Notes under the pieces: model-generated
Database searches by the model: none
Told to the model about the DNA's origin: nothing
What the model saw: only the letters and a program-made list of their open reading frames with translations
Translations under genes and position numbers: made by a program
Part shown: positions 8,274-52,789 of the stretch, in pieces
Numbering within the stretch: the stretch's first letter is position 1
Layout: each line of letters starts with the position of its first letter
Source of the DNA: a virus
Reading direction: 5' to 3' (one strand)
Virus record (IMG/VR): IMGVR_UViG_3300042301_001937
Span: 6,575-70,574 of that record
DNA: 64,000 bases

Positions 8274-8280
8274 ATACAAT

Positions 8281-9462: not shown

Positions 9463-9475
9463 TCCTCTCCTTTTT
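9450..9475 (+). terminator. Intrinsic terminator at the convergence of the two gene blocks
   Basis: GGAGAGGA-TTAG-TCCTCTCC hairpin (9451-9470) followed by TTTTT, between convergent stop codons. Confidence 0.85.
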
Positions 9476-27856: not shown

Positions 27857-29239
27857 TTATTTACCAGCTTTCTTTTTTAGTGTTCTTTTAGGAGAAGATT
27901 TTATCATACCTCCGTATTTATTTTTTTCAGTTCCTTTAACTCCTGCTTCTGTATCTTCTTTAACTCTTTTACCTTCTAACCTATTAGCATAAGCTTTCCA
28001 TGATTCTAATTGATTGTTATAAGCAGTTAAGTTATTGAAAATATTAGCAACAGATTTAGACGTATCAGCAGTTACAGCATTTTTAGCTCCTGTTTTCCAA
28101 AGATTGTAATTATACAAAGCTTCTCTGTTAGCTTGGTCTATAGCTGCATTTGCTTTTGATGTTTCATTAGCAGCAGCGGCCATTTGTTTATTATACTCAT
28201 TCATAGCTTGAGTATTTAAATTAGTTTCGTTTTGGAAGCTTTCACCTTTTTTCTGCATTTGTAAATTCCTCATTTTCTGGTAGTTACCAGCTTGAGTTGA
28301 ATAACTACCTCCACCTAATCTAATACCCATATTAGCTGCAGCAGTATCAGCATCAATTGCTTGACGTTGTGCAGACAAATCATATCTATTTGGAGATACA
28401 CCTGCAGTAAATCCAACAGCATCAAATGGTGTTGGAGCTTGTGTTTTATTAATACGATCTTGTTGAATTAAAGCTTGAGTTAAGTTAGTAGCTAAAGCAT
28501 AAGGAGAATAAGACATTTCATCATTAAGTTCAGCAATAGCATTTGAATTTTTTCTAGGTTGTACATAATCAAATTCAGGCATAGGTAAATCATCAGGAGG
28601 AACCATTCTACGTATAGGTTGTCCAATCATACTTTTAGGCTGAATTGTATTCATTACAACTGGAGCCATATTTCTAGAATAATTAGTTAACGTACTTTCT
28701 TGAGTTTCAGGAGCTTGCATTGTATTAACAGGAAAATAATTTGATTTACCCATTATACTTCTTGGTTTTAATGCTACAGATCCAGACATAGAATTTAATT
28801 CTTCTATTGGAGCATAATTAGGATCACCTTCCATTAATGCTGGTCTAGGTCTTACTAAATCTGCTAAACTAGCAACAGGTGCAGTTTGTCCAACATAAGG
28901 ATATGGACTTACTAATGGATCATTATTATACATTAATGATCTGTAAGGATCGTTGTTAGCAAACATAACTTCTTGATCATTAGTAATAGGTGAAACTGTA
29001 TTTCCGTTTGCATATTTTACCAATCCACCATTACGATGCATTGATAAATTCATATTGTTGCTAGGATATAATGCTCTAGGTACATTCATTTCTGCCCCAA
29101 ATTTAGGAAATTGAACTGCTCCACCTTCTGCCATTACTGACATAGGATCTGTACCAGCATTAATTGCCTGTCTTACAGACGATTCTAAATGTTTAGGTAC
29201 TTTAATTGTTTTACCTGTTTTTGAATGTTTTATTTTCAT
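27857..29239 (-). CDS. Putative virion cargo protein with xxGG motifs
   Basis: Pro/Met-rich N-half and Ala/Gln/Asn coiled C-half; MAEGG, HRNGG and NKYGG motifs. Confidence 0.65.
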   Translation of the reverse strand: MKIKHSKTGKTIKVPKHLESSVRQAINAGTDPMSVMAEGGAVQFPKFGAEMNVPRALYPSNNMNLSMHRNGGLVKYANGNTVSPITNDQEVMFANNDPYRSLMYNNDPLVSPYPYVGQTAPVASLADLVRPRPALMEGDPNYAPIEELNSMSGSVALKPRSIMGKSNYFPVNTMQAPETQESTLTNYSRNMAPVVMNTIQPKSMIGQPIRRMVPPDDLPMPEFDYVQPRKNSNAIAELNDEMSYSPYALATNLTQALIQQDRINKTQAPTPFDAVGFTAGVSPNRYDLSAQRQAIDADTAAANMGIRLGGGSYSTQAGNYQKMRNLQMQKKGESFQNETNLNTQAMNEYNKQMAAAANETSKANAAIDQANREALYNYNLWKTGAKNAVTADTSKSVANIFNNLTAYNNQLESWKAYANRLEGKRVKEDTEAGVKGTEKNKYGGMIKSSPKRTLKKKAGK

Positions 29240-29240: not shown

Positions 29241-32200
29241 TTAGTCTTCGATTATTTCCCAAGAACCTATAGTACCACCTTGAGCAAACTGTTGTGCAAA
29301 GTTAGCATCTCTTTGTGATTTATACTCTTCTTGAGTGTTAAATAAATTATTTAATTGTTGATTGAACAACATTTCAGTATTAGCTTTAGCTACACTATCA
29401 GGTTTTCTATCTAAACTTCTAATTTTATTGTTAATCTTTTTAGCATGTTCAGCATAAGTTTTACCGTTTAATTTTAACCTGTCACTAAATACTTTAGTTC
29501 CTTCAGGTAAAGCTACTTCTATACCACCTTCATCGTGACTAGGACCATTAACTTGTCCTACTTCACCACCAGGTAACATAAACTGTTCGTTTAATTCTAA
29601 TTCTGCATTAGCACCTTCTTGATCAGTATTGATAGAACCACCATAAGGATATAATTGTGTACCCATTGTTTGAGTTAAACCAGCAGATTCATTAGCTTTT
29701 CCTCTAATACGTTTTAACGAAATTCTATTGTTAGATTCTACTTGAGCTTTTTTAGCTGCTTCTTCTTCTTCTGCAGAATTAAAATAACCCATAGCTCCTC
29801 CTATAACTGCACCAGCAAGAGCACCATAAGGTCCTAAAGCAGCACCAGTTGCAGCACCTTGAGCAGCACCTTTACCTATACCTGCCCAAGTATTAGTAGA
29901 TGAACCTACAACATTACCTTCATCATCAGTATATTCGTTATTTGGAACTTTACTTAAAGCTAATTCTGCAATTTGAGCACCAGCACCAATACCAGCTGAA
30001 GCTAAATTAGGATTTTTCCAACCTTTACCTTTACCTACTACTTCAAACATTCCATTACTAGTAGTTTGAGGATTTGTAGCATCACCAGCAGTAGTTACTG
30101 TACCAGCATCACCATATTTTTTTAAACTTCTACCTATAGTTCCACCCATAGCTTTAGTTGCTAAAGGTACTCTTCTTGTTAACATATCATTTGCTAATGT
30201 ACTAGCTACTGCAGAACTATCTGCTTTTTTAGGTAAAACTTTTACAGTTCCGTCTCTACCTGTTAATACGGTATTACCATTAGCGTCTATACTTTTAGTC
30301 CATGTTTGACCGTAACCATTAGGTTTAGAAGGATTTGCTATGTTGTCATTTTGAATTAAATATTGTGTTCTAGCACCTAAAATACCATCATCATATTTTC
30401 CTGCTTTTGTAGCTCCAAAAGTACTATTCATTTTATCTAACAATGCTTGTCCTTGAGGAGTACCTTGTAACATTTTTAATTGAGCACTTTGGAAATTTGC
30501 ATTATTATCTGTAGGTAAATTGTGTTGTTTAGCATAATCAGTTACTAATTTATCAGTTAAGTTAAATTGATTATTAGAAAATGCATTGCTTTGACCTGTT
30601 GGAGTTTTTTGCATTCCTCCTTGATATGTAGTTAATCCTGTTTTTGGAGTAGTAGTAGCTGGGGTTGTAACTTTTGCAGCTTCAATATCTTTAAGTGTTG
30701 GTCCACCCATATCATATTTCATCAAACCTCCTTCGGCAAAATCTAATCTACCGTAAGATTTATGTTTAGGTCCTCTTCCACAACCATTAGTGTTACCACC
30801 ATCTCCAATATTATATCTTACACCAGCATTAAAATAAGGTTGATCATTAACCATATCATATCCACCTTCACCTGAAAATCCAAATTTACTTCTATAGCTA
30901 GGTTTTAAATTAACGCCTAACCCAGCTCTGCCCATAACAGCTGAAGCATTTGGATCCATTAGATTTTTTTCTAAAGCAGCCATTTGATTAGGATCAGCAT
31001 AGTATTTACCTGCAGCTACACCATAAACATTTCCTTGAGGTCCTCTACGAGATCCAAAAGAACCTAAACTTGGAGTTATTTGACCTTCAAGAAAAGGCAT
31101 ATCTTTACCCATCATATTACCGTAACCTACACCTAACATTACAGGATTTAAATTTAAACCTGCACTTGCATTATAACCAAGACGGTTAACATCACCTTTT
31201 AAATAACCTCCACCAAAAACACCCCCTTTAAAACCAGGTCCTCCTTGACTATCGTAATAAGATTGTAATAGACCTGTAGATCCACCGTCAGGATATTGAA
31301 CCATTCCACCTACAGCAAATTTTTTCTTATAACTAACTTCAGCGTTAATACCTTGATTCATAGGATTATAGTTAAAGTTACCACTAAAGTTACTATTGTT
31401 TCTATCGTAGTTTAAATTTAATCCTACATTAGCATCAGGACGAATCATAGGAGCACCATTAAATCCATCAGTATTTAAAGGTAAAGTATGGTTAAATCCT
31501 AAGTTAGCATTTAAACCAGCATTAAAATTACCAAGTTTTCTTTGGTAATCAGCAGCTAATTTATAGTTAGACTCTACAGCTTTAGGATTAGGGTTTCTAG
31601 AATAGTTACCTGTTAAACCAAAAGTATTATTAGGTTCAACTTCACCACCTTCTGCATGTTTAAACTTAGCAGCATTTTTAGCAAAGTTAGCACGTTTAAC
31701 TATGGTAGAAGAATATTTACCTTTATTAGCCATAACATGACTAGCAGCTTCTTGCACACCCATACCATGAGATTTTGCCCAAGCTGTAAATTTACCTTTG
31801 TTTTCAGGTTTAATGTGGATACCACCGTATTTATATTCTTTAAAGTTTTTCATCATTGGAGCTATTTCTTTATAATGTTGTGCAAAATATTCTGCATCTT
31901 CAGGAGATTCAAACCTCATATCTTCTTTAGATGGAGTCATACCGTCTACTAAACGTAAATTAGCATCTCCAAAATCTTGTAATAATGGAATTGCATAATT
32001 ACCCATACTAGTCATATAATGAGTACCTATACCTTCTGGTGTCATTCCTGTTTTAGGATTAGCTGATACCATTCTTTTAGCAGCAGGATTACCAAAATGA
32101 GCATCTAAAGCCATACGTGCTTTCATCATTCCAGTTTTACCTCCATCGGCATATTGATCAAATTCATCATCAATTTCTCCACCTTCAGCCCAAGTCTTTC

Positions 32201-33077
32201 TAGCAAATGCTCTAAAGTAAGGATTGTTAGCTAAGTTATGTTTATGTCTAGCATAGAAAGCTTTCTTTCTTTCTGGATCATTAGGATGTTGACCTAAATT
32301 ACTATCACCAAAATATTTCTTAGTGCCATCAGGACCAATAACGACATGGGTTTTACCTTTACGTTCACTTGAACGTTTAACTACATAACCACCACCACCG
32401 TATTCATTTGAAGTTGAATCCATTTCATCATGCATATCATCTAAAATAGGTAATACTCTTCCTATAGGTACATTTTTTGTAGTTTTTAAACTTTTAATTC
32501 CTTGACCAAATTTACCTACCATTGGTAAACTACCTAATATTTCAATAGGTAAATTATTCCAATCTTTATTTTCAATAGTTTTAATTAAATCAGGATAATT
32601 TGTTGTTCCAGTAGGATCTAACCATGAGATTAAATTAGCAGAAATGTTTGAACCTCCATAAGGAGAATTTTTAACACTAGTATATGAATTTAAATTATCA
32701 GAATTAGGCCTAATAACTTCTGTATTTAATTTTATTTTTTTAGAGTTTTTAGGTGGTTTAGTGCTATAATTATTTTTGTCTAAAGATAAATCGTCAGTAA
32801 TATAACCTCCTTCTTCATGTTGAGCTTTAATCTTAGCTTCTTGTTCTAACATTTGTTTAGTAGGTTTCTTTCCAGAACCACGATTAGCACGAATATTATC
32901 CCAAAGACCACGTTGAGAATAACTACCATCTGCTCTTTTAATCATACCACCATTTTTGTATTCATGCAATGCATTGTAATCTTCTGGATGGGCAGCAGCA
33001 AAAGATTCTTCTGTTGGGTATTTTTTATGGAATTGATCCATAGTTAACCCGTGTTTTTTTAATATTTTATTTATCAT
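29241..33077 (-). CDS. Modular cargo polyprotein-like protein with ~14 [FYHW]xxGG motifs
   Basis: Motifs such as YKNGG, HEEGG, WAEGG, YADGG, YKYGG, HAEGG, FAVGG, YPDGG, FAEGG, YDMGG, YPYGG and FAQGG separate distinct modules. Also has a glycine zipper and a GPSHDEGG motif. Confidence 0.75.
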   Translation of the reverse strand: MINKILKKHGLTMDQFHKKYPTEESFAAAHPEDYNALHEYKNGGMIKRADGSYSQRGLWDNIRANRGSGKKPTKQMLEQEAKIKAQHEEGGYITDDLSLDKNNYSTKPPKNSKKIKLNTEVIRPNSDNLNSYTSVKNSPYGGSNISANLISWLDPTGTTNYPDLIKTIENKDWNNLPIEILGSLPMVGKFGQGIKSLKTTKNVPIGRVLPILDDMHDEMDSTSNEYGGGGYVVKRSSERKGKTHVVIGPDGTKKYFGDSNLGQHPNDPERKKAFYARHKHNLANNPYFRAFARKTWAEGGEIDDEFDQYADGGKTGMMKARMALDAHFGNPAAKRMVSANPKTGMTPEGIGTHYMTSMGNYAIPLLQDFGDANLRLVDGMTPSKEDMRFESPEDAEYFAQHYKEIAPMMKNFKEYKYGGIHIKPENKGKFTAWAKSHGMGVQEAASHVMANKGKYSSTIVKRANFAKNAAKFKHAEGGEVEPNNTFGLTGNYSRNPNPKAVESNYKLAADYQRKLGNFNAGLNANLGFNHTLPLNTDGFNGAPMIRPDANVGLNLNYDRNNSNFSGNFNYNPMNQGINAEVSYKKKFAVGGMVQYPDGGSTGLLQSYYDSQGGPGFKGGVFGGGYLKGDVNRLGYNASAGLNLNPVMLGVGYGNMMGKDMPFLEGQITPSLGSFGSRRGPQGNVYGVAAGKYYADPNQMAALEKNLMDPNASAVMGRAGLGVNLKPSYRSKFGFSGEGGYDMVNDQPYFNAGVRYNIGDGGNTNGCGRGPKHKSYGRLDFAEGGLMKYDMGGPTLKDIEAAKVTTPATTTPKTGLTTYQGGMQKTPTGQSNAFSNNQFNLTDKLVTDYAKQHNLPTDNNANFQSAQLKMLQGTPQGQALLDKMNSTFGATKAGKYDDGILGARTQYLIQNDNIANPSKPNGYGQTWTKSIDANGNTVLTGRDGTVKVLPKKADSSAVASTLANDMLTRRVPLATKAMGGTIGRSLKKYGDAGTVTTAGDATNPQTTSNGMFEVVGKGKGWKNPNLASAGIGAGAQIAELALSKVPNNEYTDDEGNVVGSSTNTWAGIGKGAAQGAATGAALGPYGALAGAVIGGAMGYFNSAEEEEAAKKAQVESNNRISLKRIRGKANESAGLTQTMGTQLYPYGGSINTDQEGANAELELNEQFMLPGGEVGQVNGPSHDEGGIEVALPEGTKVFSDRLKLNGKTYAEHAKKINNKIRSLDRKPDSVAKANTEMLFNQQLNNLFNTQEEYKSQRDANFAQQFAQGGTIGSWEIIED

Positions 33078-36000
33078 CTTTTACCTAATAAATTAGTTTG
33101 CATAGGTTCAGGTGTTATAAATACACTATCTCCTACATTTATGTTAGCGTCATTTTTATCTAACCAACCAGTTGGAATGTTAATACAGCCATAAGAAAAT
33201 AACTTTTGTTTAATTTTAGGGTCATTAAGAATAGCCATTCTTCTTGCATATTCTTCATCGTCATTTCCTTTACCCCAAGCATCATGTAAAGCTGTAGCTG
33301 TACCTGCTTCATTAGGTTGACCGTATATATAAGTTTTGTTACCGTAACCTGATTTTGGACTGTTTTTTCTTTCTTCCCAAATAGCATAAGAACCAGCTGG
33401 AGTAGTAGCTTTTAATTTATTACTTTTTGCCGATTTATGTGCATCAGCTGTATTAGGAAAATCACCTTTAGCCATACCTCTACCTGCAACAATTTGATCA
33501 ACTAATTTATGGTTGTTGTCAAATAAATATAACGTACTATTTTCTTTAGAATAAATACTATACTTACCTTTAAAACTTGCCCAAGCTGGATTTTTAGATT
33601 TTTCTTCTAATACTTGTAAAGCATCCGAAGGTAATTTAGAAGTAGATTTAGTAATATTAGTTACAGTACTTTTTTGCAAAGGTTTAACAGGTGTAGATTC
33701 TATTTTAGTTTCTACTTTATGTGCTGACTCTACAATAGGTTTAACTGTTTTAGGTAAAGTTCTTTTATCAACTGCAGATGGTGCCGCAATATGAGTACCA
33801 CTAGTAGTATTTAGTAAAGGTTGTTTTACAGGTTTTGCAGATGGAGCAGTTGGTATTGGAGCAGCAATAGTAGGTTCAACCATTTCTACAGTTGGATCAG
33901 GTAATCTACTTGGTGCCATTTCTGGAGCAACTTCTGTATTATTATCAGTACTATATAAAGGAACTTGGTTAGCCATAAATTGAGGAGGTCTTTGAGATAT
34001 CAAAGGTCTACCTTGTATTCCACCTTCATCAAATTTATTTAAATGAGTTAATAATTCTTCTTCATCATTAATAGATGTAAGATAATCACTAACTTCTTTA
34101 TTAAAGTTACCTAAATTTAAATTTTCATACAACTGCATAACATGATTAGATGTTGCTTTTTCTTTAGGTTTTAAATTTAATTGAGACCTTAAATTAGATA
34201 CAACTCCACCTTTAGCATAAGTATCTAAATTTGGATTGTTTGATATATAGCCTCCAAACGGTTTCATTACACCATATACAGTTTTTGGATCACCATAATA
34301 ACCAACTGCTCTACCTGAATTAACAAAATTTTCCCATGCTCCTTTTGAAGACGATGTTTGAGAATTAAAACCAGGTTTTACTCTACCTAAATTTAATTCT
34401 TTAAGATACTCATTTATAGATTCATAAGCTTTTGTACCTTTTCTTGGAGTTCTATCTGCAAATACAGTTCCTGTAGTATTAGTCATTTCTAAACCAGGTA
34501 TTTGTTGAAAATAACTTTGATTAGCAATATCTTCTACATCACCTTTCCATTGTCCAGGTTTTAATCTAATTCCCCAATTAGAAGTACCTGCATCTAATTT
34601 ATATTCAGGAGATAATTTTTGATATATAGTAGCTTTTAATACATCTTCAGCATGTTGTCTTTCATTAAATCTTGAATTATTTAAACTTATATCTCCAGTA
34701 GTAAATCTCCATTTACCGTCTTCTTGTTTTAATCCTAAATGATTATTAATATAATTATCATAATCATTATGATACATATCCCAATGTTGTTGTTGAGAAG
34801 GAGTTAAATTTCTTTTTAAAGTTTGTTCTGGTGTTTCAAAAATTAAGTAACCATGTTCGTTTGATCCTTTTTGTAATCCTTTTATTTTATATTGTACCCC
34901 TGATTTGTTATTTTTAGCTACTATTTCATTTAGTTTATCTACATTTTGATTAAATAAATCAATATATTCTTCATTAGTTAAATCAGTTAAATTATCTAAT
35001 TTATAAGAATTATTTGGAATGTAATTTACAATATCTCCGTTAGGTTTTAAAACTGTATTTTTAAATTCATTTTCTGACATTTTAGAAACAACATCTTTAT
35101 TTTTAGATAATGTTTTTTCTAATAGTTCTTCTTTAGTTAACCCTGATTTATTAATTAATGCAGGTTTTACTAAAGTTTCTGTTCTTGGAATTAAAACATT
35201 ATTATAACTAGGTTGATTTGCTATACGTGAACTTAAACCATTTAAAAAAGTTTGTATTCTACTAGAATTATCAATATTTCTAGGAATATTTTGAATAGCG
35301 TAATCATTAATATTTCTATTTACAAGTCTATTTCTAGCATAACTATTATCAGCAAGTCTATTTCTTGTATAATCAGAAGCATTTTGAAGGCTATTAAATG
35401 ATGATGGATAATCATCAATATTACCTACCCCATGTAATTTTAATAAATTTGCTTCTTCAAGATTTAATCTATCGTCCGAAGTATGGTAAATATTTCTTGC
35501 ACGTTCTAACGGTAAATGTTCAGGATAAGGTATTTGAACATCATCTGCAAAATCACTAATAAAATCTCTTACATTTTCAGTTCTTTGTCTTTTTAAAAGA
35601 TTTGGATTATACATATTAAGGTTATATATATCTGATCTAACGGGTATTTGAGTTAAAGCATTACCTGCACGTTCATAATTTTGTGGTAACCCTGCTCCAA
35701 ATTCTGTTAAAATTCTTTTTTCAGGACGAGTTAATAATCTATCAGAATTATGATAAATATTTCTAATTTCTTCTAAATTATTTGAAGCTTTATTTTTTAA
35801 TAAATTTGAAGCAGTTTTTTTAAATGCGGCTTTACCTAAAACTTTACCTACAGTTAAAGGTATATTTAATGCTTCTATAGCATCTAGTACTTCAAGACTT
35901 GCGTCTTGTAATCCACCTCTACCAGTAGTTTGACCAGTTTTAGAATTTATTTCATACTGCTCAGGAGACGTAGCAAAATTTCTACCTTGAAGAATATCTT

Positions 36001-36100
36001 TAGGTTTTTGAAAAGTAGGTGTATAATTAGTCCTTGTTGCATCTTGTGGTGCAGTAGTAGAAGGATATTTAGGACCTTTAAATTTCTCTAACCAAGCCAT
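33074..36100 (-). CDS. Modular virion protein with C-terminal L,D-transpeptidase (YkuD-like) domain
   Basis: SKENSTLYLFD...GRG...TPAGSY...ALH...SYGCINI catalytic His/Cys pattern; Pro/Thr linker; KPFGG, YAKGG and FDEGG motifs. Confidence 0.75.
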   Translation of the reverse strand: MAWLEKFKGPKYPSTTAPQDATRTNYTPTFQKPKDILQGRNFATSPEQYEINSKTGQTTGRGGLQDASLEVLDAIEALNIPLTVGKVLGKAAFKKTASNLLKNKASNNLEEIRNIYHNSDRLLTRPEKRILTEFGAGLPQNYERAGNALTQIPVRSDIYNLNMYNPNLLKRQRTENVRDFISDFADDVQIPYPEHLPLERARNIYHTSDDRLNLEEANLLKLHGVGNIDDYPSSFNSLQNASDYTRNRLADNSYARNRLVNRNINDYAIQNIPRNIDNSSRIQTFLNGLSSRIANQPSYNNVLIPRTETLVKPALINKSGLTKEELLEKTLSKNKDVVSKMSENEFKNTVLKPNGDIVNYIPNNSYKLDNLTDLTNEEYIDLFNQNVDKLNEIVAKNNKSGVQYKIKGLQKGSNEHGYLIFETPEQTLKRNLTPSQQQHWDMYHNDYDNYINNHLGLKQEDGKWRFTTGDISLNNSRFNERQHAEDVLKATIYQKLSPEYKLDAGTSNWGIRLKPGQWKGDVEDIANQSYFQQIPGLEMTNTTGTVFADRTPRKGTKAYESINEYLKELNLGRVKPGFNSQTSSSKGAWENFVNSGRAVGYYGDPKTVYGVMKPFGGYISNNPNLDTYAKGGVVSNLRSQLNLKPKEKATSNHVMQLYENLNLGNFNKEVSDYLTSINDEEELLTHLNKFDEGGIQGRPLISQRPPQFMANQVPLYSTDNNTEVAPEMAPSRLPDPTVEMVEPTIAAPIPTAPSAKPVKQPLLNTTSGTHIAAPSAVDKRTLPKTVKPIVESAHKVETKIESTPVKPLQKSTVTNITKSTSKLPSDALQVLEEKSKNPAWASFKGKYSIYSKENSTLYLFDNNHKLVDQIVAGRGMAKGDFPNTADAHKSAKSNKLKATTPAGSYAIWEERKNSPKSGYGNKTYIYGQPNEAGTATALHDAWGKGNDDEEYARRMAILNDPKIKQKLFSYGCINIPTGWLDKNDANINVGDSVFITPEPMQTNLLGKR

Positions 36101-36498
36101 TACTTCAAGTTTTTAAGTTTATATAAAGCAGCATATATTTCTTTTTGAATAGTATCAAGTTCATTTTGAACCCAACTATCTGGAAACATAGTATAGCTAT
36201 CTTCTACAAATTTAGCTAATTCTTCTAAAAAAGTCACTATGGTATTGTATTCACTTTGAGGAACAATGATTTCTACTATACCATATTTACCTTGCCATGA
36301 TTCAATTAATCCGTCAGTTAAATCCAATAATTCGTCATAAAGATCGTTTAAAACCTTATGTTCCCATCCAGATCCTAATTGGCCAGGACTTGTAGGACGT
36401 AAATGACGTGTATGTAAAATATCACGTGCTTGAAATAATTTGCCAAAAAACATGCTTGGGGTACTTTTTGGTGTTGATTTTTTTAATAGAATTGCCAT
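36100..36498 (-). CDS. Ferritin/Dps-like protein (DUF5856-like)
   Basis: HTRH...EHKVLNDLYDELLDLTDGLIESWQGKYG...QNELD...YKLKNLK four-helix di-iron-type pattern. Confidence 0.75.
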   Translation of the reverse strand: MAILLKKSTPKSTPSMFFGKLFQARDILHTRHLRPTSPGQLGSGWEHKVLNDLYDELLDLTDGLIESWQGKYGIVEIIVPQSEYNTIVTFLEELAKFVEDSYTMFPDSWVQNELDTIQKEIYAALYKLKNLK

Positions 36499-39400
36499 TA
36501 TCTTATATTTTTAATTTTAATGCCTGAAATATCTAATAGATTTAATTTAGGTTTTTTAGTTACAATGCTAGCTGCTGTTATAGTAGTATTAGTACCTAAA
36601 CTTGCAGAAGTAAAAGGTAAAGTATTATAAAATTTCATACCGTAACTACTACCTCCTCCATAAATTACAACACCATAAATTACAAAATCTTGTCCTAATA
36701 AATCACAACTAAATTTTAAAACGTCTCCTATATTTATTGTTTCAGCTATATTTAAAACTATATCTGAAGTAGAACTAATGTTATCTTGAGCTACATCATT
36801 TGGTACAATATAAGAAGAAGACATTATAGTTAATGGTGTTTCTTTAGACAAAACATATTTAAATCTAATTCCAAACCAGTAATCTACCAGACGTTTTAAT
36901 TTAGTCCAATGTTTATTAACAACTATATTAGCATCTATAAACGGTCTGTACCAAACATTATTATTGACCACTTTAGTAGAATTGTTTAAAGTATAATCTC
37001 TAAAATCGTTATTAGACCAATAACCTTCTACGTTTCTAGAATTACTTTGATTAACGATATTTGAGATTTTACTTATTTGATAACTATCATAAGCTTGTAA
37101 AGAATCAAATGTTTGTAGCACTTCTTCATTACTTGCAATGTCTAAAGCTTTAGTTTTCCATTGTACAGACATTAATCTGCTAACTTCTTTACCGTTTATA
37201 ATAGGTTCAATAGTTAACGTGCCTCTAGAATCAGTAATGTTTTCTAATGCTTTGCTACCACCGTAACTTAATAAATAAGGATACTCTTTCTTGTTTTGTT
37301 CAAAAGCTACTTTATTGTGTTGAGACCAAAACTTCAATTGATTAGAAAAATAGGTATCTTGAGAATTTTCATACCAGCTTACAAAACCATCATATTCAGG
37401 ATAATAAGCTAAAGTAAATCTATCTTCTGTAAAATATGTAGGGTTGTTAAAATATATTTCACTTCCATAACATAAAGTAGTACCGTCAGTATAAAATTGT
37501 ACGATATCTGTACCTGCACCTGCAGCTTTAGCATATAGTTTTCCTTCAAACATAAACAAAGCTCCTACACCCCAATCATTTTCAAAATTATCAATATCAA
37601 AATAACCATAGAAATTTGTAGTAAATGTCGATGTTACAGTAATATCTTTTTTAGTCAACAAAAACCTTTTGTATAAAGGATCAAATCCAGATATGTAACC
37701 ATAAAATATAGAATCTTGACCATCAAAATAAAAACCATCGTAATTATATATTTTAAGCCAATTGTCTGAATTAGTAGGATTAGCTGTATTGGCATTTACA
37801 AGTGATAAATAAATAGCATTATTATAGACAACAGAAGAACCTTGAATATAAGTAGATCCTGAAACATAATTACTGGTTAAAGTAAAAATCCGATCTCTTA
37901 AATAATTTTCAAAATTTAATTTAATGTTAGTTAAAGAAAATATTTTAACACCATTATTCGAAATAGCTGAAACTTTTTCTCCGTAAAGTATAATACTTGC
38001 TGAATTTACGTCAACATAAAATACCCCGTATTGGTTGGTAATAGAAGAAAACTGATGTTTTAATCCTGCATAACCAGTATCAGTTAAAATAACATCTTTA
38101 GCTGGATAGTCAAATAAATCTCCTGCACCTAAATAAGCTTCAGAAGAATCTGTTTTCATCCTATCTTTAGTAGCTGTTCTTTTTAAAGTATGGCTATGTT
38201 GAATAACTAAAGCGTTACCAAAATTAGTAATGTTATTAATTTCACCTTTAGATTTTTCTACATCCGTATATTCATTAGGTAAGAAAATCCTAAGATTATC
38301 TTGTACAGATTCTGGATTGTCTACTGCAGATCTAGCTATTCTGGTAGGAAAACTGTCTATTTTAGTAGATAAAAATGAATGAATAATAGGAGCACGTAAA
38401 TCGTTAACTGAAGTGTAATCTCTATTATAACCGTAGTAGTTAGCAAAACCGTTAGGTAATAAAGGTACTCTTAAAACTGAAACATAATCAGATTTAGGAT
38501 AGTAAATATCGTAAGTACCTGTTCCTTGATGTTTATAATTAACATTTGAAACTGTTTCTAAATATGCTGAATACAAAGTAATAAACTGCATAGAAGTATA
38601 AATAGTACTAGGTGTAAAATATCCTTGATTATAAGCATATACTAAATCACTAGCAGATCTGTAAGAATCTAATGATTGAAATGTATCTCCACCATAAAAA
38701 TGACTTGATGGATCAAATCCTGTACTAAAAGCAGATGCGTCTAATGTTTCAATGTATCCAGTATCTACTAATTCTTGAGTATAATAACTAGGATACATAT
38801 TTGGTTTTAATGAACAAATATTACCTTTTAAAATAGAAGAATCATAAGGATCTTCTGAAGGAAGTGTAAAATTTAATTGTTGATTACCAGTATAACAATT
38901 TGCTTCTATGTTATTTGCCGTTTCTATACTTACACAAGTTTCTCCAAGATAATGAGTTGTATCATAAGTAAAATCTAATAAACCTGCATTAGGGGGATGA
39001 TGTCCACTACCTGTAGTCCAAGTAGAATCTGGATTATATATAGGTAAGCTTTCAGTTAATTTAGCATTAGTAAATCTTCTAATGTAAGAAGATTTTTTCT
39101 GATCAGCTACTGATTCTTCAAAACAATAAAATCTAGCATCTGCTGCTCTAGGATCATTACCTATATTATTATTCCAAGCTGAAGTTCCTACAGATCCCCA
39201 ATAATCTAATTGTGTAGATACATTTTTAAATGCTTTAAAATGTGTAGCTGAAGATACATCTAAATTAGAAGAAGAAATATCAAAAGGACTCATTCTAAAT
39301 CTATTTAACCGTCTATACATAAATCTACTAACTGAAGGAGAGTAATCAGAATAAAACTCCATTGAATTATTAAACGATAAACTAAATACACCTTCTTCAA

Positions 39401-41588
39401 GTCTATCTTGTCCATCATAAGTTAAATAAAAATCATGTATTATTAATGATTGTCCTAAAACACTCCTATTTAAATTAGTTCTTTTAGCGTAATATATTTT
39501 AATTTTATCTATTTCATTTTCAAGTTCTGCAGGTAAAATTATATTAGAAATCTTTAATCCTAAATTAGCTGTTTGATAAATTTGAGCTGATTGCTGAATG
39601 TTTTCAGGACCAGGCATTTTATGATGTCTAATTTTTTGATTTTTAAAAGAAGCTGTATTACTACCACTTGAATTTTTTACATCCCAATCAGTAGTGTTGT
39701 CATAAGTTTCATCAGCATTTTCCCAAAACCCTAATTTTAAAGGAAGTGATAAAAGATTACCTTCTCCACAATCAAAAGCATGAAATACTTTAGAGTCAGA
39801 ATTAATACTATATATTTCTCCAGCAGGTGAAATATCAGTAGAAGTTAATCCGTTAGTTACGTAATCATCTATAATAGGAGGTACGTAAAAAATACCAGGT
39901 AAATTATAACCTGATGAAATATTCCATAAAGTTATAACTCCTAAATTAGCACCATTTACATATTTAACTGCTTCTACAGTATGAGTGTATGTAAAAAGTG
40001 GGGCTGTACCTGTTATATCAGTACTTAACACTTTTACGTAATAATACGATTCTGTACCTGCTAGATCATATTGTTTTAATAAAGCAATATCATTAGTAGC
40101 TAAACCACTACCATTAGCTGCATTTACGTTATAAATTAATTGCAACGTAGTAGTATTAAAGGTGCCCCCTTCATTAGAAATATCAGTTAAACTACTAGAA
40201 AATCCTTCATCTTCATTTAATCTGTAAGTAGCTTGAATTGTATCAAGTCTTTCATCTTCATCAAACCTAAGTCTTATTCCAGCTGAATCACGTGCTATTA
40301 CTCCACCTGTAATATCAGGTGCAGAAGCAGTTCCATCATAACTAACTCTTTCAGCTTGACGGCCTGGAATATGAAATGCTTCACTTTCCGTACCATCTTT
40401 ATAAACTAATGTAGCATAAAGAGCATATACCTCATCATATTGAAAACAACGTTTAGTAAAGATTGCAGTTTCTGAGTGAAATGAAGTATTAAAAACACTT
40501 CTATCTTGAATTTCAATATAAGGTTCTACTTGAATATTGTTAATCCAAGGTTGAAGATTAGTTTTTAATTGTTCTTTTAAATTACCAATATATAATCTAT
40601 TGTCTAATTGAGTAATAGTTTTAGCTACCCAAGTAATTTTATTAATTAAAATATCTGTACTTGTTGTAGCTGCATTATCTAAAGATATAATTTCTCTAGT
40701 AAAAGTTCCAGTTGTATTAGGAAAATACCCTAAATCATAAGCAGCTAAAACTTGATTAATTTTAGTTATAACGTATAATTTTACATTAGGAAAATTAATG
40801 TCTGAACTAAAACTAATAGTAAAACTTTTACCTGTTAAGGTATTTGGTGGGCATCCATCATAGTTTTCAAGAGGAAATGGAGTTAACTCATTAACTATAG
40901 AAATAGGGTTAGATGGAAATGAAAGGTTAGTTTCATTAAAATTCTCATCTGCATAAGATGCTAATACGTAGTAAACTCCTGATTTTAAGTTACCTCCATT
41001 TTGAACTGAATCTAAATTAATCTTAAATTGTTCAAAAGGTTTTAAAACGTATAATTTATTAAACTCATCAATGTCTGTACATTGAAAGTTAAGATCTACA
41101 ACAGGTTCTGGAATATCAACATTTATATATCTTAATGGGTTTCTAAAATCTACCCAATAAACGGAAAATGTATTATCCGAGTTAATTTTATAACTACCTT
41201 GTATTTGTGTATTAAGATTCCAATTAAAATCAGTAACTCCTACTTTGTCTCTAATTAATACTCTGTAAGAATTGTCTGATGATATTACTCCAATTTCTCC
41301 TCTACAAAATCTACCTACAAGTTGTGTAGTTGGATCATTAGGGTCATAAAATTTAGATTCCCCTTCAATTACAGAAAATAATACCACAGAACCATTGCTA
41401 AGTGGAATTTTACCAATGCATGTAGCACCTGGAGTTATTAACGTAGGATAATTAAAAAGTGGATAATTACCGTCTTCATTAGTAATACTTCCAACTTCTG
41501 AATTAATGTTTACATTAATATTCAACCTTGATGTTTTATCAGGTTGATTTTGTGGATCACCATCTGTATTTAATAAAAAAGGCTGCAT
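36498..41588 (-). CDS. Tail stabilisation/muzzle protein
   Basis: 1696 aa, beta-rich; VYWVDFRNPLRYINV, GGNLKSGVY, NRLYIGN and FHIPGR motifs of crAss-like tail stabilisation proteins; positioned after the tail ring gene. Confidence 0.8.
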   Translation of the reverse strand: MQPFLLNTDGDPQNQPDKTSRLNINVNINSEVGSITNEDGNYPLFNYPTLITPGATCIGKIPLSNGSVVLFSVIEGESKFYDPNDPTTQLVGRFCRGEIGVISSDNSYRVLIRDKVGVTDFNWNLNTQIQGSYKINSDNTFSVYWVDFRNPLRYINVDIPEPVVDLNFQCTDIDEFNKLYVLKPFEQFKINLDSVQNGGNLKSGVYYVLASYADENFNETNLSFPSNPISIVNELTPFPLENYDGCPPNTLTGKSFTISFSSDINFPNVKLYVITKINQVLAAYDLGYFPNTTGTFTREIISLDNAATTSTDILINKITWVAKTITQLDNRLYIGNLKEQLKTNLQPWINNIQVEPYIEIQDRSVFNTSFHSETAIFTKRCFQYDEVYALYATLVYKDGTESEAFHIPGRQAERVSYDGTASAPDITGGVIARDSAGIRLRFDEDERLDTIQATYRLNEDEGFSSSLTDISNEGGTFNTTTLQLIYNVNAANGSGLATNDIALLKQYDLAGTESYYYVKVLSTDITGTAPLFTYTHTVEAVKYVNGANLGVITLWNISSGYNLPGIFYVPPIIDDYVTNGLTSTDISPAGEIYSINSDSKVFHAFDCGEGNLLSLPLKLGFWENADETYDNTTDWDVKNSSGSNTASFKNQKIRHHKMPGPENIQQSAQIYQTANLGLKISNIILPAELENEIDKIKIYYAKRTNLNRSVLGQSLIIHDFYLTYDGQDRLEEGVFSLSFNNSMEFYSDYSPSVSRFMYRRLNRFRMSPFDISSSNLDVSSATHFKAFKNVSTQLDYWGSVGTSAWNNNIGNDPRAADARFYCFEESVADQKKSSYIRRFTNAKLTESLPIYNPDSTWTTGSGHHPPNAGLLDFTYDTTHYLGETCVSIETANNIEANCYTGNQQLNFTLPSEDPYDSSILKGNICSLKPNMYPSYYTQELVDTGYIETLDASAFSTGFDPSSHFYGGDTFQSLDSYRSASDLVYAYNQGYFTPSTIYTSMQFITLYSAYLETVSNVNYKHQGTGTYDIYYPKSDYVSVLRVPLLPNGFANYYGYNRDYTSVNDLRAPIIHSFLSTKIDSFPTRIARSAVDNPESVQDNLRIFLPNEYTDVEKSKGEINNITNFGNALVIQHSHTLKRTATKDRMKTDSSEAYLGAGDLFDYPAKDVILTDTGYAGLKHQFSSITNQYGVFYVDVNSASIILYGEKVSAISNNGVKIFSLTNIKLNFENYLRDRIFTLTSNYVSGSTYIQGSSVVYNNAIYLSLVNANTANPTNSDNWLKIYNYDGFYFDGQDSIFYGYISGFDPLYKRFLLTKKDITVTSTFTTNFYGYFDIDNFENDWGVGALFMFEGKLYAKAAGAGTDIVQFYTDGTTLCYGSEIYFNNPTYFTEDRFTLAYYPEYDGFVSWYENSQDTYFSNQLKFWSQHNKVAFEQNKKEYPYLLSYGGSKALENITDSRGTLTIEPIINGKEVSRLMSVQWKTKALDIASNEEVLQTFDSLQAYDSYQISKISNIVNQSNSRNVEGYWSNNDFRDYTLNNSTKVVNNNVWYRPFIDANIVVNKHWTKLKRLVDYWFGIRFKYVLSKETPLTIMSSSYIVPNDVAQDNISSTSDIVLNIAETINIGDVLKFSCDLLGQDFVIYGVVIYGGGSSYGMKFYNTLPFTSASLGTNTTITAASIVTKKPKLNLLDISGIKIKNIR

Positions 41589-42313
41589 TATCTATTATAT
41601 CTTAAATTAATAAAGTGTTCACCAATTGAATCTGAATAGAAGAAATCTCTTGCTGTAGAAATATTAGGAATAAGTCTAACCCATTGATTCTTAAATGATT
41701 CCATTCTTGGAATGTCAAACATAGCCAATAAGTTTTCAGCTTGTCCTCTGTATCTCATGTAATGGTTTTCAGCATAACTTAAAGTCATTTCTCTATTAGG
41801 ATGTTCAAAACCTCCTAACATTAACATGTAAGTTAACTTCCAAAATAAACATTGAGTTACTGCTTCTTTGTCTGGAATTAAAGGAAACCCTTCTTCATCA
41901 ACAGGAAAAGCTTGATAAGATACACATATAATCTCATCATCAGGCACATTGGTATTGATATAGTTAGGATTAACAGTGTAGCTATAATCTGTATGCAAAA
42001 TAGATGTATTAATACAATCGTCACAATGCATGTCGTAGTTAAAAGTTTGAGATCCATATCTTAAAAAAGTGCTTTTATATGCTACCGATTTAATTAAATA
42101 TAAATCACATGGTATTACGGCTTTACCATTTTTAATAGTTAGAAATGCAGTTTTATCTAATAACTGTTCTGTACAACCAATAGCTTCAAGTGCATCTCCA
42201 ATCCAATCAACAGCTTCTCCAATAAGTCTATCAGAATGCTGAGATAGCAAAGTACCGTATGCTCCAAAAGCTCTGTTTATTATTCTTTTACAAGAAACTG
42301 ATCTATAATTCAT
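41588..42313 (-). CDS. Tail tubular/ring protein
   Basis: WIGDALEAIG...IPCDL...SYQAFPVDEEGFPLIPD pattern; directly upstream of the muzzle gene, matching crAss synteny. Confidence 0.75.
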   Translation of the reverse strand: MNYRSVSCKRIINRAFGAYGTLLSQHSDRLIGEAVDWIGDALEAIGCTEQLLDKTAFLTIKNGKAVIPCDLYLIKSVAYKSTFLRYGSQTFNYDMHCDDCINTSILHTDYSYTVNPNYINTNVPDDEIICVSYQAFPVDEEGFPLIPDKEAVTQCLFWKLTYMLMLGGFEHPNREMTLSYAENHYMRYRGQAENLLAMFDIPRMESFKNQWVRLIPNISTARDFFYSDSIGEHFINLRYNR

Positions 42314-42328: not shown

Positions 42329-42835
42329 TTACAAAGATACTGGAATTTTATCAAATCTTAGATAATATTCAGAATCCGATTTAAGTCGTTCAGTAAGTTT
42401 ATTCTTAGCTCCAGATTTACATTTAGTACCATTTGTCCTAGAAGAATCAAACTTATACATAGTGCTACCTTTTATATTACAATTTTTCTTATTCCAATGA
42501 AACCCTACGTAATATTTATCGGTATAGTATATAAACTTGTTATCGTCTAATTTACCTTCTTTTCTTAACTTCTTAGTTTGACCCCAATTTACAGGTGCTA
42601 TTAAACGGTCATTTTTAACCTTAAAAGATCTGTCAAACCTAAGTACCTGAATTTCACCTAGATGAAAAGGCACTTTAAATTTACGGTTTCCTCCTAAAAG
42701 AAGATAATCCACAACGTAGTTGTTTAATTCAAGGATTATCTTTTTATACAGTTTAAAAGGAATCTGTTTTTCATAATTAGCATTATACCAATTATGACTG
42801 TTGGTTAATGTTGTTGTTGTGTGACACTGCGTCAT
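42329..42835 (-). CDS. crAss-type IHF/HU-like basic protein of the tail block
   Basis: Helices followed by FKVPFHLGEIQV (HU-like strand/turn) and VNWGQTKKL; conserved position between ring genes. Confidence 0.55.
   Translation of the reverse strand: MTQCHTTTTLTNSHNWYNANYEKQIPFKLYKKIILELNNYVVDYLLLGGNRKFKVPFHLGEIQVLRFDRSFKVKNDRLIAPVNWGQTKKLRKEGKLDDNKFIYYTDKYYVGFHWNKKNCNIKGSTMYKFDSSRTNGTKCKSGAKNKLTERLKSDSEYYLRFDKIPVSL
42332..42339 (-). promoter_or_regulatory. Bacteroidota -7 element (TATCTTTG)
   Basis: TAnnTTTG 18 nt upstream of ATG 42313, overlapping the end of the previous gene. Confidence 0.5.
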
Positions 42836-43472
42836 TTTCTTTATCTTCAGTTGTTCCTAATAAGAATTTCAATTCTGTTCCTAATATATCTTTTGTAATC
42901 AAATCTAGCAAATCTGCTGTCAACGGGTAATCTGAATTGTCAGTGTAACATAAACCGTCATCACAAGTAAAAGTCCTTGCATCTTCTGGTTCTTCTAAAA
43001 TTGCCCTAACATTAATTACTTTAAGATCCAAGGTAGTCGGAAAATAAAGATAATCGTTTAAAAAATAAAACGGTAATGTCATTCCAGGATATTTTCTTTC
43101 TGAATAAAATGGACTTCTTTCAGGAAGAATTAAACTGAATCTAGATTGTCTATCTATAGCAGATACTTTTAAAGCATATCTTTCTTTGAATCTAATAGTT
43201 TTAGGAATAGTAAATTCAGTTCTAAGAATGTCACAATCCACATTAAATTCACAACATTCAGCTTTATCTACTTTAATTAATGGAATACAACCTAAATCTT
43301 GATAAAATAGATCGTTGTCAAAATAGTTTTTATTTTGATCTTGACGTATATATTGAGCACGTTTATAGTCTATAATAAACGATAACTGTGATACTGAAGG
43401 TGCAAAGTCGTCATTAATACGTCCAGCCGACATTAAGTTCAGTAAATTATAGACTATCTCATTTTTTGTCAT
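42792..43472 (-). CDS. Tail ring protein
   Basis: MTKNEIVY...RAQYIRQD...YLYF...INVRAILEEP...DYPL pattern of crAss ring proteins. Confidence 0.7.
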   Translation of the reverse strand: MTKNEIVYNLLNLMSAGRINDDFAPSVSQLSFIIDYKRAQYIRQDQNKNYFDNDLFYQDLGCIPLIKVDKAECCEFNVDCDILRTEFTIPKTIRFKERYALKVSAIDRQSRFSLILPERSPFYSERKYPGMTLPFYFLNDYLYFPTTLDLKVINVRAILEEPEDARTFTCDDGLCYTDNSDYPLTADLLDLITKDILGTELKFLLGTTEDKENDAVSHNNNINQQS

Positions 43473-51340: not shown

Positions 51341-52789
51341 CTACAAACCAGCAGTACAAGCTAAGTCGATAGAAGTGTTAAATCTTCTAAGAACAACTTG
51401 TCCAGCTTTCAAGAAGTGTACTGAACTACCATCTTTATCAGTTGCAATGATATCGTTAGCAGTAAAGTCAGTTCCTGATGGTGCTTCGTTAATACCTTTT
51501 ACCATACCACGTAACATTGCACGGCCTTTCTTAGAAACCATAGACAAGTTACTCATACCATCATAAGTAGATGTATCTACAAATGCCATACGGAAAGATT
51601 CCAATGGAAGGTTAGGGTAGTTAGGGTGTTTAGGAGAAGCCAAAGCTTGAGGACCGTTATCAAAAATAGAAGCAGTTTTGATAATCACCTTGTAACCATC
51701 AACGTGTTGATAAGTATCAAAGTATCCACCTAATCCCAAATTGTATCCATCACCAGTAACGAATTTGTTATCTGATAATTTGATGTACTGTTTAGAACTA
51801 AGTTCATTTTTCATAGCTTGGTCAAACATTAAACGACCACCAATACCTGTGAACAAAGTGATAACTTTATTTTCAGCATCTGACATACCATAAAATACGT
51901 CACGAATGGTTTGATCAATTTTATCAGCTGTTAATGCACCATAGGTATCTTTGTTAGTGATTTGTTCGAACAAACCAGATCCACGTACAATTGGATTACC
52001 TTGTTCATCACGTTCGTTGATAACACCATAAGCATCACGATTTGATTTAGAATACCAGTAGTTAGTTTCACATTCTACACGGAAACTTAAATTGTGTTGG
52101 TATTCTTCGTAAGGCCAATACATTTCACGGTTACCTCCACCTTTGGTGTCTAACTGTACAGTTTTAGCTTTACGATATTTGATGTTACCTTCGTAAGCAT
52201 AACCTTTACGAATAGTACCTACGTCACCACGAACTTTAACTGGAGCAGTTGAAGTAGACAAGCTACCAAAAGATCCAAATGAAGCTACCGAGTTCCAACC
52301 CAATGCATACAATGAACCAGCAGCAACTTCACTTGCAGGTAAAAATTCAGATGCATTTTTAGCAACTAATCTTACACTGTAAGCCCATTGACCGTTAGTT
52401 TGAATACGGTTAGTAATACGTAATTGGTAACCTTGAGGTGACAAGATAGTGTAACCTACAGGGAAAATACCTTCAGCAAAATACAAAGTAGCTTCTGAGT
52501 AACCAATACCGAAGTTAGCTGCATAAGAACCTGAAGGAGGTGATTGAAGAGATACTGCCTTGAACAAACGTCCAATTACATCATACTCGTATTCGTCACC
52601 ATCAATTTCTTGAATAGCGTTCATACCTTCTGAAAGGTACATTAAAGGAAAACGAGAAGATTCATTACCCATCATACGAGTAAGAACTGGTGCGATTTTG
52701 TCAGGCTGTGCATTAATCAGACGAGAGAAAGAAGCATCATTACTTTTCATGCTTTCATTCCACACTTGATCCATTAAAAATTGTGCCAT
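51341..52789 (-). CDS. Major capsid protein (HK97 fold, crAss-type)
   Basis: 482 aa downstream of portal and scaffold; GSGLFEQI, LFTGIGG..MFD and HP..P.LPLES motifs; codon usage of a highly expressed gene (frequent CGT/TTC/TAC); strong terminator. Confidence 0.88.
   Translation of the reverse strand: MAQFLMDQVWNESMKSNDASFSRLINAQPDKIAPVLTRMMGNESSRFPLMYLSEGMNAIQEIDGDEYEYDVIGRLFKAVSLQSPPSGSYAANFGIGYSEATLYFAEGIFPVGYTILSPQGYQLRITNRIQTNGQWAYSVRLVAKNASEFLPASEVAAGSLYALGWNSVASFGSFGSLSTSTAPVKVRGDVGTIRKGYAYEGNIKYRKAKTVQLDTKGGGNREMYWPYEEYQHNLSFRVECETNYWYSKSNRDAYGVINERDEQGNPIVRGSGLFEQITNKDTYGALTADKIDQTIRDVFYGMSDAENKVITLFTGIGGRLMFDQAMKNELSSKQYIKLSDNKFVTGDGYNLGLGGYFDTYQHVDGYKVIIKTASIFDNGPQALASPKHPNYPNLPLESFRMAFVDTSTYDGMSNLSMVSKKGRAMLRGMVKGINEAPSGTDFTANDIIATDKDGSSVHFLKAGQVVLRRFNTSIDLACTAGL

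Follow-up and report, generated by a model that had tools for sequence, protein, structure and literature searches.

The window analysed here is a stretch of 64,000 nucleotides from a virus (positions 6,575 to 70,574 of the IMG/VR record IMGVR_UViG_3300042301_001937). The element in question is module 1, a segment bounded by Gly-Gly (GG) pairs inside the protein encoded by a 1278-aa open reading frame (ORF) on the minus strand. The protein is a distant homologue, by profile comparison, of the crassvirus cargo protein C1, and within it module 1 forms a discrete cassette with a conserved amphipathic pattern. We tentatively propose, with a probability of roughly 40%, that module 1 is a cassette of hairpins able to self-assemble, and that during ejection its copies would make an oligomeric barrel pore in the host outer membrane. 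The relevant parts of the protein are the following.

29241..33077, minus strand: the 1278-aa ORF (P0001), a distant homologue of the crassvirus cargo protein C1 (ORF list, translation, homologues).
31305..31643, minus strand: module 1, residues 479–591 (E479...KKKFAVGG; AlphaFold2 strands, hydrophobic moment, GG bounds, face split, four-copy model).
30795..31304, minus strand: module 2, residues 592–761 (MVQYPDGG...YFNAGVRYNIGDGG; 20% Gly; beyond the window carried by P0004, P0005 and P0006 only).
31644..31820, minus strand: a GG-bounded module of about 60 aa, IHIKPENKGKF...KFKHAEGG, residues 420–478, upstream of module 1 (tblastn, hhalign).
29295..29909, minus strand: residues 1057–1261, a Gly/Ala-rich hydrophobic segment followed by a CARG1-like domain (hhalign to C1 of the gut crassvirus cr108_1).

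The original prediction had placed two outer-membrane beta-barrel-like modules in this protein, and all strings and coordinates that it quoted are found on the 1278-aa ORF. The interval 30800–31643 (minus strand) translates without stops into residues 479–759 (281 aa, EVEPNN...RYNIGD). Its first stretch, 31317–31643, corresponds to E479–F587 and is flanked by HAEGG (G477–G478) and FAVGG (G590–G591), while the second one has the end FGFSGEGGYD...YFNAGVRYNI and is followed by GDGG (G760–G761). Module 1 was defined as residues 479–591, and module 2, as residues 592–761.

The alternation of polar and apolar residues along module 1 is beyond chance. The mean hydrophobic moment at 180 degrees, calculated in 9-residue windows, is 1.34 compared to 0.77 ± 0.13 in shuffled sequences (z 4.3), and none of the 500 shuffles reaches it; in four other parts of the 1278-aa protein, z ranges from −0.1 to 1.6. 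The AlphaFold2 model, based on an alignment of 22 rows, has block pLDDT of 65–84 over the first 110 residues of the modelled piece. It features six predicted antiparallel strands of 10–16 residues each (483–496, 500–515, 518–533, 544–559, 562–571, 576–585), connected by turns of 2–4 residues and one 10-residue loop. If the residues of these strands are divided between the two faces of the sheet, 29 out of 41 are apolar or aromatic on one face, and 3 out of 41 on the other. This split is retained across relatives of 33–80% identity: the share of apolar cells on the first face is 70% in 12 close, 71% in three intermediate and 64% in four distant relatives, and on the second face 8%, 7% and 6%, respectively.

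The polar face is rich in Asn and Gly. In the 20–21 aligned sequences, Tyr is invariant at the strand ends (positions 505, 557, 570, 583), and so is Asn on the polar face (519, 523, 525, 550, 563, 571); altogether, module 1 has 31 invariant positions and contains 22% Asn. Among the 20 complete copies, the last strand ends in the basic cluster [KR][KR][KR]F in the 16 that are closer and in TKKF in the four most distant ones. Of the 11 basic residues, six (R513, K514, R559, K584–K586) are situated at strand ends on the flank side, the sides being assigned from the presumed topology. The hairpins of module 1 are amphipathic and conserved, and one of their faces is compatible with lipid.

The predicted model looks like a piece of a barrel wall in its geometry, short of demonstrated homology. 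The weak Foldseek neighbours are OmpX and NspA (E 0.2–0.45). In a wide VIA-align search, 34 of the 50 best rows, judged by title, are transmembrane barrels or beta-pore formers, the remaining 16 including soluble sheets and pieces of phage spikes or baseplates. The best match is the PapC usher barrel (Z 8.0, rmsd 2.1 Å, 77 aligned residues), followed by Vibrio OmpT (Z 7.8, 4.2 Å, 98 aligned), with C5b8 (Z 7.5, 6.5 Å, 82 aligned) and the perforin pore (Z 7.2, 3.6 Å, 78 aligned) also present, all of them within Z 6–8, the usual best score for models that have no true match. In BFVD, weak matches over about 110 columns are produced by small cyanophage proteins annotated as having an "outer membrane protein-like beta-barrel domain" (E 2e-3 to 5e-2, rmsd 7–10 Å).

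A single-chain barrel takes at least eight strands, and module 1 has six in 111 residues. As this is too few for a barrel of the outer membrane protein (OMP) type, several copies were modelled together. Given four copies of residues 479–591, ESMFold2 yielded a score of 0.60, compared to 0.00 for the best of three controls. The mark is reached by 20 of 30 proteins solved as one-chain pairs and by one of 23 solved as single chains, a calibration that holds roughly here, as it was made with two copies and our run was supplied with its own alignment. At least 96% of the contacts are common to the three runs, and the partner has pLDDT of 82 or more. Residues 2–18 of the scored copy pair with residues 96–111 of one neighbour, and its own residues 96–111, with residues 2–18 of another. 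The predicted pairing between copies is that of strand 1 to strand 6, antiparallel (13–102, 11–104, 10–105, 14–101, 9–106), in a register that keeps polar residues opposite polar and apolar opposite apolar ones (L10–Y105, Y14–A101). The model supports binding between copies, short of proving it, and copies paired in this manner would give one continuous two-faced sheet.

The original prediction fared differently in its parts. The amphipathic strands are there, clearly in module 1 and modestly in module 2 (z 2.5). The structural check suggested along with it, AlphaFold followed by Foldseek, produced the six-strand model of module 1, but neither a match in the PDB at E ≤ 0.001 nor a confident model of module 2. 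The resemblance of module 1 to the wall of an outer-membrane barrel, with fold matches at noise-level Z, is retained, whereas the idea of two small self-contained barrels is not, given the six strands of module 1 and its edges, predicted to pair with other copies.

The comparison of homologues describes module 1 as a unit. Homologues were sought with residues 470–770, so that each of them has module 1 or module 2 by construction. A word-indexed search restricted to proteins of 702–2237 aa yielded 11 homologues of 972–1848 aa, and among 1.84 billion proteins of all lengths there are 16 representative clusters, none shorter than 408 aa. Scans of viral contigs with the single module and with alignment A2, able to detect close relatives only and possibly excluding the own record, gave no wider relatives; nor did the scan of genome contigs with P0002, which also finds only close ones. 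Module 1 is present in 19 out of 22 compared proteins, and module 2, among the homologues compared, only in P0004, P0005 and P0006.

All 20 copies of module 1 that retain the C-terminal end are closed by F-x-x-G-G, and all 20 that retain the N-terminal end have GG at most 12 residues upstream. On the other hand, the upstream sequences differ in P0008, P0009, P0013, P0017, P0018 and P0019, and in P0017 and P0021 the IHIKPENKGKF module is situated after module 1, not before it. Since the GG bounds are kept at both ends while the flanks differ, module 1 is, at the level of sequence, a discrete cassette. The layouts in close relatives are helical–module 1–module 2 in the window, helical–module 1–X–module 2 in P0004 and helical–X–module 2 in P0006, where X is an additional cassette, all junctions lie exactly at GG, and the label "helical" of the module at residues 420–478 comes from its sequence only. 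Thus, cassettes are gained or lost exactly at the GG junctions between proteins that are about 90% identical. Cassette X itself (KIDEVYATSMQ...NRSRSLSGG; residues 727–838 of P0004 and approximately 327–438 of P0006), inserted between modules 1 and 2 in the former protein and replacing module 1 in the latter, is also rich in Tyr, Asn and Gly.

The IHIKPENKGKF module is found in 20 of the 22 compared proteins and, again bounded by GG, in C1 of cr108_1 (tblastn identity 62.8% over 43 aa, residues 418–460; hhalign probability 97%). This similarity to cr108_1 C1 (L002 5101–6930) contrasts with the identity of less than 30% between the capsid proteins of the two phage groups. It suggests that the module is either strongly constrained or has been exchanged as a cassette between distant crassviruses.

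The number of GG pairs in the 1278-aa protein, 27, does not exceed that in shuffles of this Gly-rich sequence (mean 19.9, maximum 37). The signal is in the context and placement of the pairs, not in their number. Among 304 GG sites from 23 proteins, which are related, so that the sites are not independent, position −3 is occupied by Phe, Tyr, His or Trp in 59% of cases (background 9%), position −2 by Ala in 42% (background 8.8%), and position +2 by Ile or Val in 39%. The context motif is [FYHW]-A-[EDN]-G-G-x-[IV], and the junction may be written as [FYHW]-A-x-G-G. It closes modules that are not beta-structural as well (KFKH-AE-GG, KTW-AE-GG, LDF-AE-GG, QQF-AQ-GG). This bears on the suggestion that the end of module 1 resembles the beta-signal recognized by BamA, which we abandon: the Phe three residues before GG is the junction aromatic, seen in the same 59% of the 304 sites and also after helical modules, it is followed by AVGG and 687 further residues, and the spacing at this end is Y-x-x-x-F. 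The junctions may serve as linkers, docking motifs or cleavage sites. No protease was recognised among the scanned part of the window ORFs, and in a full-text search the motifs FAEGG, YADGG, HAEGG and WAEGG came up only in author names and unrelated text.

The C-terminal part of the protein links it to C1. The alignment of 17 C-terminal sequences was compared with cr108_1 C1 by hhalign, giving a probability of 96.1% and E 3.1e-9 over 195 columns, with residues 1057–1261 aligned to residues 69–282 of cr108_1 C1. The latter comprise the Gly/Ala-rich hydrophobic segment and the CARG1 domain, that is, the portal-binding domain of C1. The same region, residues 1057–1261, matches phrog_15413 (E 1.2e-11). 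The curated Pfam cut-off for PF25725, 27 bits, is not reached either by the whole protein (15.9 bits, E 0.014) or by residues 980–1268 (19.2 bits, E 0.0013), and out of 22 members of the protein family only one has this domain at E ≤ 0.01. Given the hhalign result on the one hand and the Pfam score below the cut-off on the other, by sequence the 1278-aa protein is a distant homologue of C1 with about 1050 additional N-terminal residues, below the level of Pfam membership.

The order of genes on the minus strand is Ring 2, Ring 1, muzzle, DUF5856, the 1008-aa ORF, the 1278-aa ORF, and then the ORFs of 460, 660, 3725 and 1721 aa. In cr108_1 the order is muzzle, C1 (PF25725, E 2.9e-58), C2 (PF25712). 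The difference is that in the window two ORFs separate the muzzle gene from the 1278-aa ORF, whereas in cr108_1 C1 directly follows the muzzle. Still, the gene is located as expected for C1, after the muzzle and before the giant genes associated with RNA polymerase. The surrounding features are listed below.

51341..52789: crassvirus major capsid protein (PF23898, E 2.2e-58).
42792..43472, minus strand: Ring 2 (PF25702, E 9.4e-30).
41588..42313, minus strand: Ring 1 (PF24228, E 7.2e-42).
36498..41588, minus strand: crassvirus muzzle protein gene, with the cargo genes downstream (PF25731, E 5.2e-18).
36100–36498, minus strand: 132-aa DUF5856 protein between the muzzle and cargo genes (PF19174, E 3.6e-14; phrog_858).
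33074–36100, minus strand: 1008-aa ORF between the muzzle block and the C1-like gene (weak YkuD match).
27857..29239, minus strand: 460-aa ORF, starting 2 bases past the stop of P0001 (ORF list).
14636–25813, minus strand: 3725-aa ORF (no Pfam match at E ≤ 0.001).
9474–14639, minus strand: 1721-aa ORF (no Pfam match at E ≤ 0.001).

The Pfam matches of the capsid, muzzle, Ring 1 and Ring 2 proteins identify the virus as a crassvirus, and a divergent one, its capsid protein sharing only about 28% identity with any phage record. About 30% of its nucleotides are G or C.

As the gene occupies the crassvirus cargo slot and its product is homologous to C1, it is probable that the 1278-aa protein is carried in the virion and ejected. 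This agrees with the original prediction, according to which the modules, having no signal peptide, would have to be delivered from the virion; both are indeed internal (residues 479–761 of 1278). C1 of crAss001, gp45, is located in both the tail and the capsid: one of its segments lies within the tail barrel, and one domain rests on the portal. The protein is expected to be the first to leave, starting from its N-terminus, and to contribute, with gp46, to the formation of a transmembrane channel (PMC10172136). Since C1 in crAss001 would exit N-terminus first, the N-terminal extension with modules 1 and 2 could, by analogy, reach the host outer membrane early.

In this virus, the counterpart of the C-terminal part of C1 seems to be encoded by an ORF of its own. 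The sequence of the 460-aa ORF belongs to the same polypeptide in longer homologues, where the alignment consensus runs on (...YNYNLWKTG...) past the QGG end of P0001; judging by the alignment, this could be gene fission here or fusion in the longer homologues. The 460-aa ORF has no BLASTP similarity to cr108_1 C1 (best E 0.88). Within the 1278-aa protein, a suspected peptidoglycan-binding motif at residues 822–979 has no Pfam match at E ≤ 1.

Module 2 is less well described. It contains 20% Gly, and its identity among the four carriers is 79–95%. The hydrophobic moment is 0.96 compared to 0.72 ± 0.10 (z 2.5), a value reached by eight out of 500 shuffles. In the AlphaFold2 models, pLDDT is about 30 in the context of neighbouring segments and 30.7 for module 2 alone (four sequences); ten strands are drawn in the latter, but the model is unreliable. 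No relation between modules 1 and 2 is detected by hhalign (3%). The Atlas feature search with module 2, taken as a source of leads only, yields unnamed clusters at 0.91–0.92, then OMP_b-brl at 0.90 (114 of 256 shared features) and PagL at 0.89 (100 of 256). OMPs end in the consensus G-x-x-aromatic-x-hydrophobic with an aromatic final residue. The end of module 2, G-V-R-Y-N-I, fits the general form of this pattern, which is weak evidence, and lies before GDGG, internally in the protein. Module 2 may be another element like module 1.

The mechanism that we propose is as follows. The 1278-aa protein would be a version of the crassvirus C1, packed in the virion and extruded N-terminus first through the tail at infection. 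Its N-terminal extension would consist of independent cassettes that follow one another, with [FYHW]-A-x-G-G junctions in between. Module 1, one of these cassettes, would consist of three beta-hairpins with one oily face bordered by Tyr and one polar face lined with Asn and Gly, and could not close into a barrel alone. Several copies would pair edge to edge, strand 1 of one against strand 6 of the next, forming a single large barrel with the oily face toward lipid and the Asn-lined face toward the lumen. With an even number of strands, both ends of the module come out on the same side, which is required of a cassette inside a longer chain. Insertion of the barrel into the host outer membrane would be spontaneous, from outside and without the BAM machinery, like that of beta-pore-forming proteins, and the barrel would make up or hold in place the portion of the ejection channel in the outer membrane. 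Of these steps, the six-strand sheet and the pairing of strand 1 with strand 6 follow the structural models, whereas closure of the ring, the number of copies, insertion into the membrane and the role in ejection are what we infer. A bolder version, which we consider doubtful, makes the cassette build a large outer-membrane barrel (4 × 6 = 24 strands, or 36 or 72 with six or 12 copies) and act as an interchangeable envelope-crossing module, swapped between phages at the [FYHW]-A-x-G-G junctions; the latter would possibly be processing sites, making the 1278-aa protein a polyprotein.

A number of observations weigh against the pore. Foldseek finds no match of the module 1 model in the PDB at E ≤ 0.001, and the VIA-align matches are all at the level of models without a true match, as noted above. 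At E ≤ 10, no OMP or pore-former family of Pfam matches either module, module 1 producing a chance Kringle row, and PF13505 finds nothing at the same level in the whole record, though it is found in five of 14 control genomes. In searches against PDB sequences, the single-protein query returns only a methyltransferase row (E 1.7), alignment A3 used as a profile returns no rows, and alignment A2 returns chance rows (best E 0.054). The oily face is only moderately hydrophobic in composition, being formed by Ala, Tyr and Gly with some Arg and Pro, and would be equally compatible with burial against another sheet in a soluble assembly. The Asn richness partly mirrors the 30% G+C content of the genome. 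The alignment, 22 rows with many close relatives, is shallow, and edge-strand pairing is readily produced by structure predictors. The absence of module 1 from P0006 and from cr108_1 C1 means that it is not essential to the C1 family. Further, the phage is known from a metagenome only, and the outer-membrane pores of known phage ejectosomes are helical, an example being DEV gp73 (PMC11445570).

The main rival is a soluble cassette used for packing or spacing. Its oily face would pair with some other sheet, be it that of its own copies, of another cassette or of the inner wall of the tail barrel or capsid, and it would store, order or space the cargo and never enter a membrane. In crAss001, 12 copies of C1 do have segments bound to the portal and to the inner wall of the tail barrel (PMC10172136), the set of cassettes varies among close relatives, as it would with dispensable spacers, and the moderate hydrophobicity of the oily face is consistent with burial in protein. 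The noise-level fold matches also include a variant of fatty-acid-binding protein (Z 7.0), a chitin-binding domain (Z 6.6) and pieces of phage baseplates or spikes (Z 6.3–6.7). However, soluble domains seldom have strands of 14–16 residues that form one meander sheet without a second sheet in the cassette, 34 of the 50 best fold rows are, by title, those of membrane barrels or pore formers, and in the four-copy model the copies paired edge to edge rather than face to face. We regard this explanation as unlikely, if the most serious of those opposed to the pore. A less probable one still is that the basic Tyr-rich sheet binds lipopolysaccharide (LPS) or the outer membrane with no defined barrel, and by sticking to the outer leaflet or disordering it lets the tail or cargo pass. 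This is suggested by the [KR][KR][KR]F cluster in the 16 closer of 20 complete copies, by the invariant Tyr 583, and by the clusters of the insect proteins attacin and gloverin among the Atlas neighbours of module 1. The scores of the latter, 0.83–0.84, are, however, below 0.9, the level counted as meaningful, and the regular six-strand pattern together with the predicted pairing of strands 1 and 6 favours a defined assembly.

It is improbable that the modules have no stable fold and are low-complexity Asn/Gly-rich linkers of an AT-rich genome, extended for threading through the portal and tail, an explanation that concerns mostly module 2. The composition of the modules (22% Asn in module 1, 20% Gly in module 2) in a genome with about 30% G+C agrees with it, and so do the low pLDDT of module 2, about 30 in two runs, and the view that C1 is partly unfolded during extrusion (PMC10172136). 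On the other hand, module 1 keeps its 31 invariant positions and the two-face pattern down to 33% identity and has pLDDT of 65–84; the conservation of module 2 among its four carriers is uninformative either way. The least probable explanation is that of the original prediction, in which each module is a small self-contained OMP barrel, released at GG, inserted by BAM due to its C-terminal beta-signal and serving for ejection as a channel, for superinfection exclusion or for mimicry of a receptor. Both modules do have amphipathic strands, module 2 is long enough for 8–10 of them, its G-V-R-Y-N-I end fits the OMP pattern, and OMP_b-brl and PagL are among its Atlas neighbours. Yet six strands are modelled in the 111 residues of module 1, the Phe at its end is the internal aromatic common to the junctions, Pfam yields no OMP match at E ≤ 10, no protease that might cut at GG was recognised among the ORFs scanned, and module 2 has pLDDT of 30.7. 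Moreover, BAM receives chaperoned substrates from the periplasm, and for a part in superinfection exclusion or receptor mimicry the modules would have to be expressed in the infected cell and carry a signal peptide, while they are internal parts of a cargo protein and have none.

Several other genes near the C1-like gene deserve mention. The DUF5856 gene is in an odd place, between the muzzle and cargo genes, and its phrog_858 label is "starvation-inducible transcriptional regulator". The last 209 residues of the 1008-aa ORF give a weak full-length match to the catalytic domain of the YkuD L,D-transpeptidase (E 0.0014, 19.7 bits, cut-off 23.4), and its product may be a cargo protein acting on peptidoglycan. 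By their position, the ORFs of 3725 and 1721 aa would be the crassvirus virion proteins associated with RNA polymerase. The block 485–9258 on the opposite (plus) strand encodes a VWA-like DUF2201 protein, a MoxR-type AAA ATPase, a protein with a glucosaminidase domain (PF01832, E 1.3e-17), a family A DNA polymerase with the 3'–5' exonuclease and a PD-(D/E)XK nuclease.

Among known systems, the closest to the 1278-aa protein is crassvirus C1 (gp45 of PhiCrAss001; PF25725, crAss_CARG1), with which it shares the position of the gene after the muzzle and the Gly/Ala-rich hydrophobic segment followed by a CARG1-like domain. C1 of cr108_1 has, in addition, the same GG-bounded IHIKPENKGKF module, but lacks modules 1 and 2, the approximately 1050 additional N-terminal residues made of cassettes being those of the window protein.

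In the proposed function, module 1 is similar to the outer-membrane pore proteins of podovirus ejectosomes (T7 gp14, P22 gp7, DEV gp73, N4 gp52), which are carried in the virion, come out first and open the outer membrane for DNA. Unlike module 1, an all-beta cassette inside a 1278-aa protein, these proteins are small and helical, or predicted to be helical (PMC13434306, PMC11445570), and we found no relation of sequence or fold between them and module 1. DEV gp73, a nonamer of 17.7-kDa subunits with a predicted transmembrane helix, makes pores in bilayers, and its basic residues were proposed to bind the phosphates of lipid A (PMC11445570); the basic residues at the strand ends of module 1 form a parallel to them. 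According to a 2026 paper on phage N4, crassvirus ejection proteins still await structural determination (PMC13434306). In Bayfield et al. 2023 (PMC10172136), the term "beta-barrel" occurs four times, for capsid and muzzle proteins. We found no description of a beta-barrel ejectosome pore in full-text searches of the literature on phage ejection and crAss-like cargo, judged in part by title or abstract.

The architecture proposed for module 1 has counterparts elsewhere. In TolC, trimeric autotransporters, CsgG, secretins, alpha-haemolysin and the MACPF/perforin proteins, each chain contributes few amphipathic hairpins and the barrel is closed by the oligomer, and the beta-pore-forming toxins need neither a signal peptide nor BAM. 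The perforin pore and C5b8 are among the fold neighbours of module 1, at noise-level Z; on the other hand, such multi-chain barrels and pore formers have two or four strands per chain, compared to six in module 1, and there is no homology. Small OMP barrels (OMP_b-brl PF13505, OmpX, PagL and the cyanophage proteins with a barrel domain) are similar to module 1 in the strand length, the two-face pattern and Tyr at the strand ends. They differ in having eight or more strands instead of six, whereas module 1 is internal and has no signal peptide, Pfam match or canonical C-terminal signal.

Crassviruses are among the most abundant phages known, and it is an unsolved problem how their DNA and the giant RNA polymerase pass across the Gram-negative envelope. 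If our proposal is true, a phage-delivered pore of beta-hairpins, independent of a signal peptide and of BAM, would solve this problem in another way, nearer to that of bacterial pore-forming toxins; under the bolder version, phage ejectosomes would have here their first outer-membrane channel of the beta-barrel type. If the proposal fails, module 1 is an unusual but ordinary structural cassette. The choice is easy to approach by experiment, as module 1 can be tested as a synthetic construct of 113 residues. In turn, the insertions and deletions at the GG junctions offer a way to study the adaptation of ejection proteins to the envelopes of different hosts.

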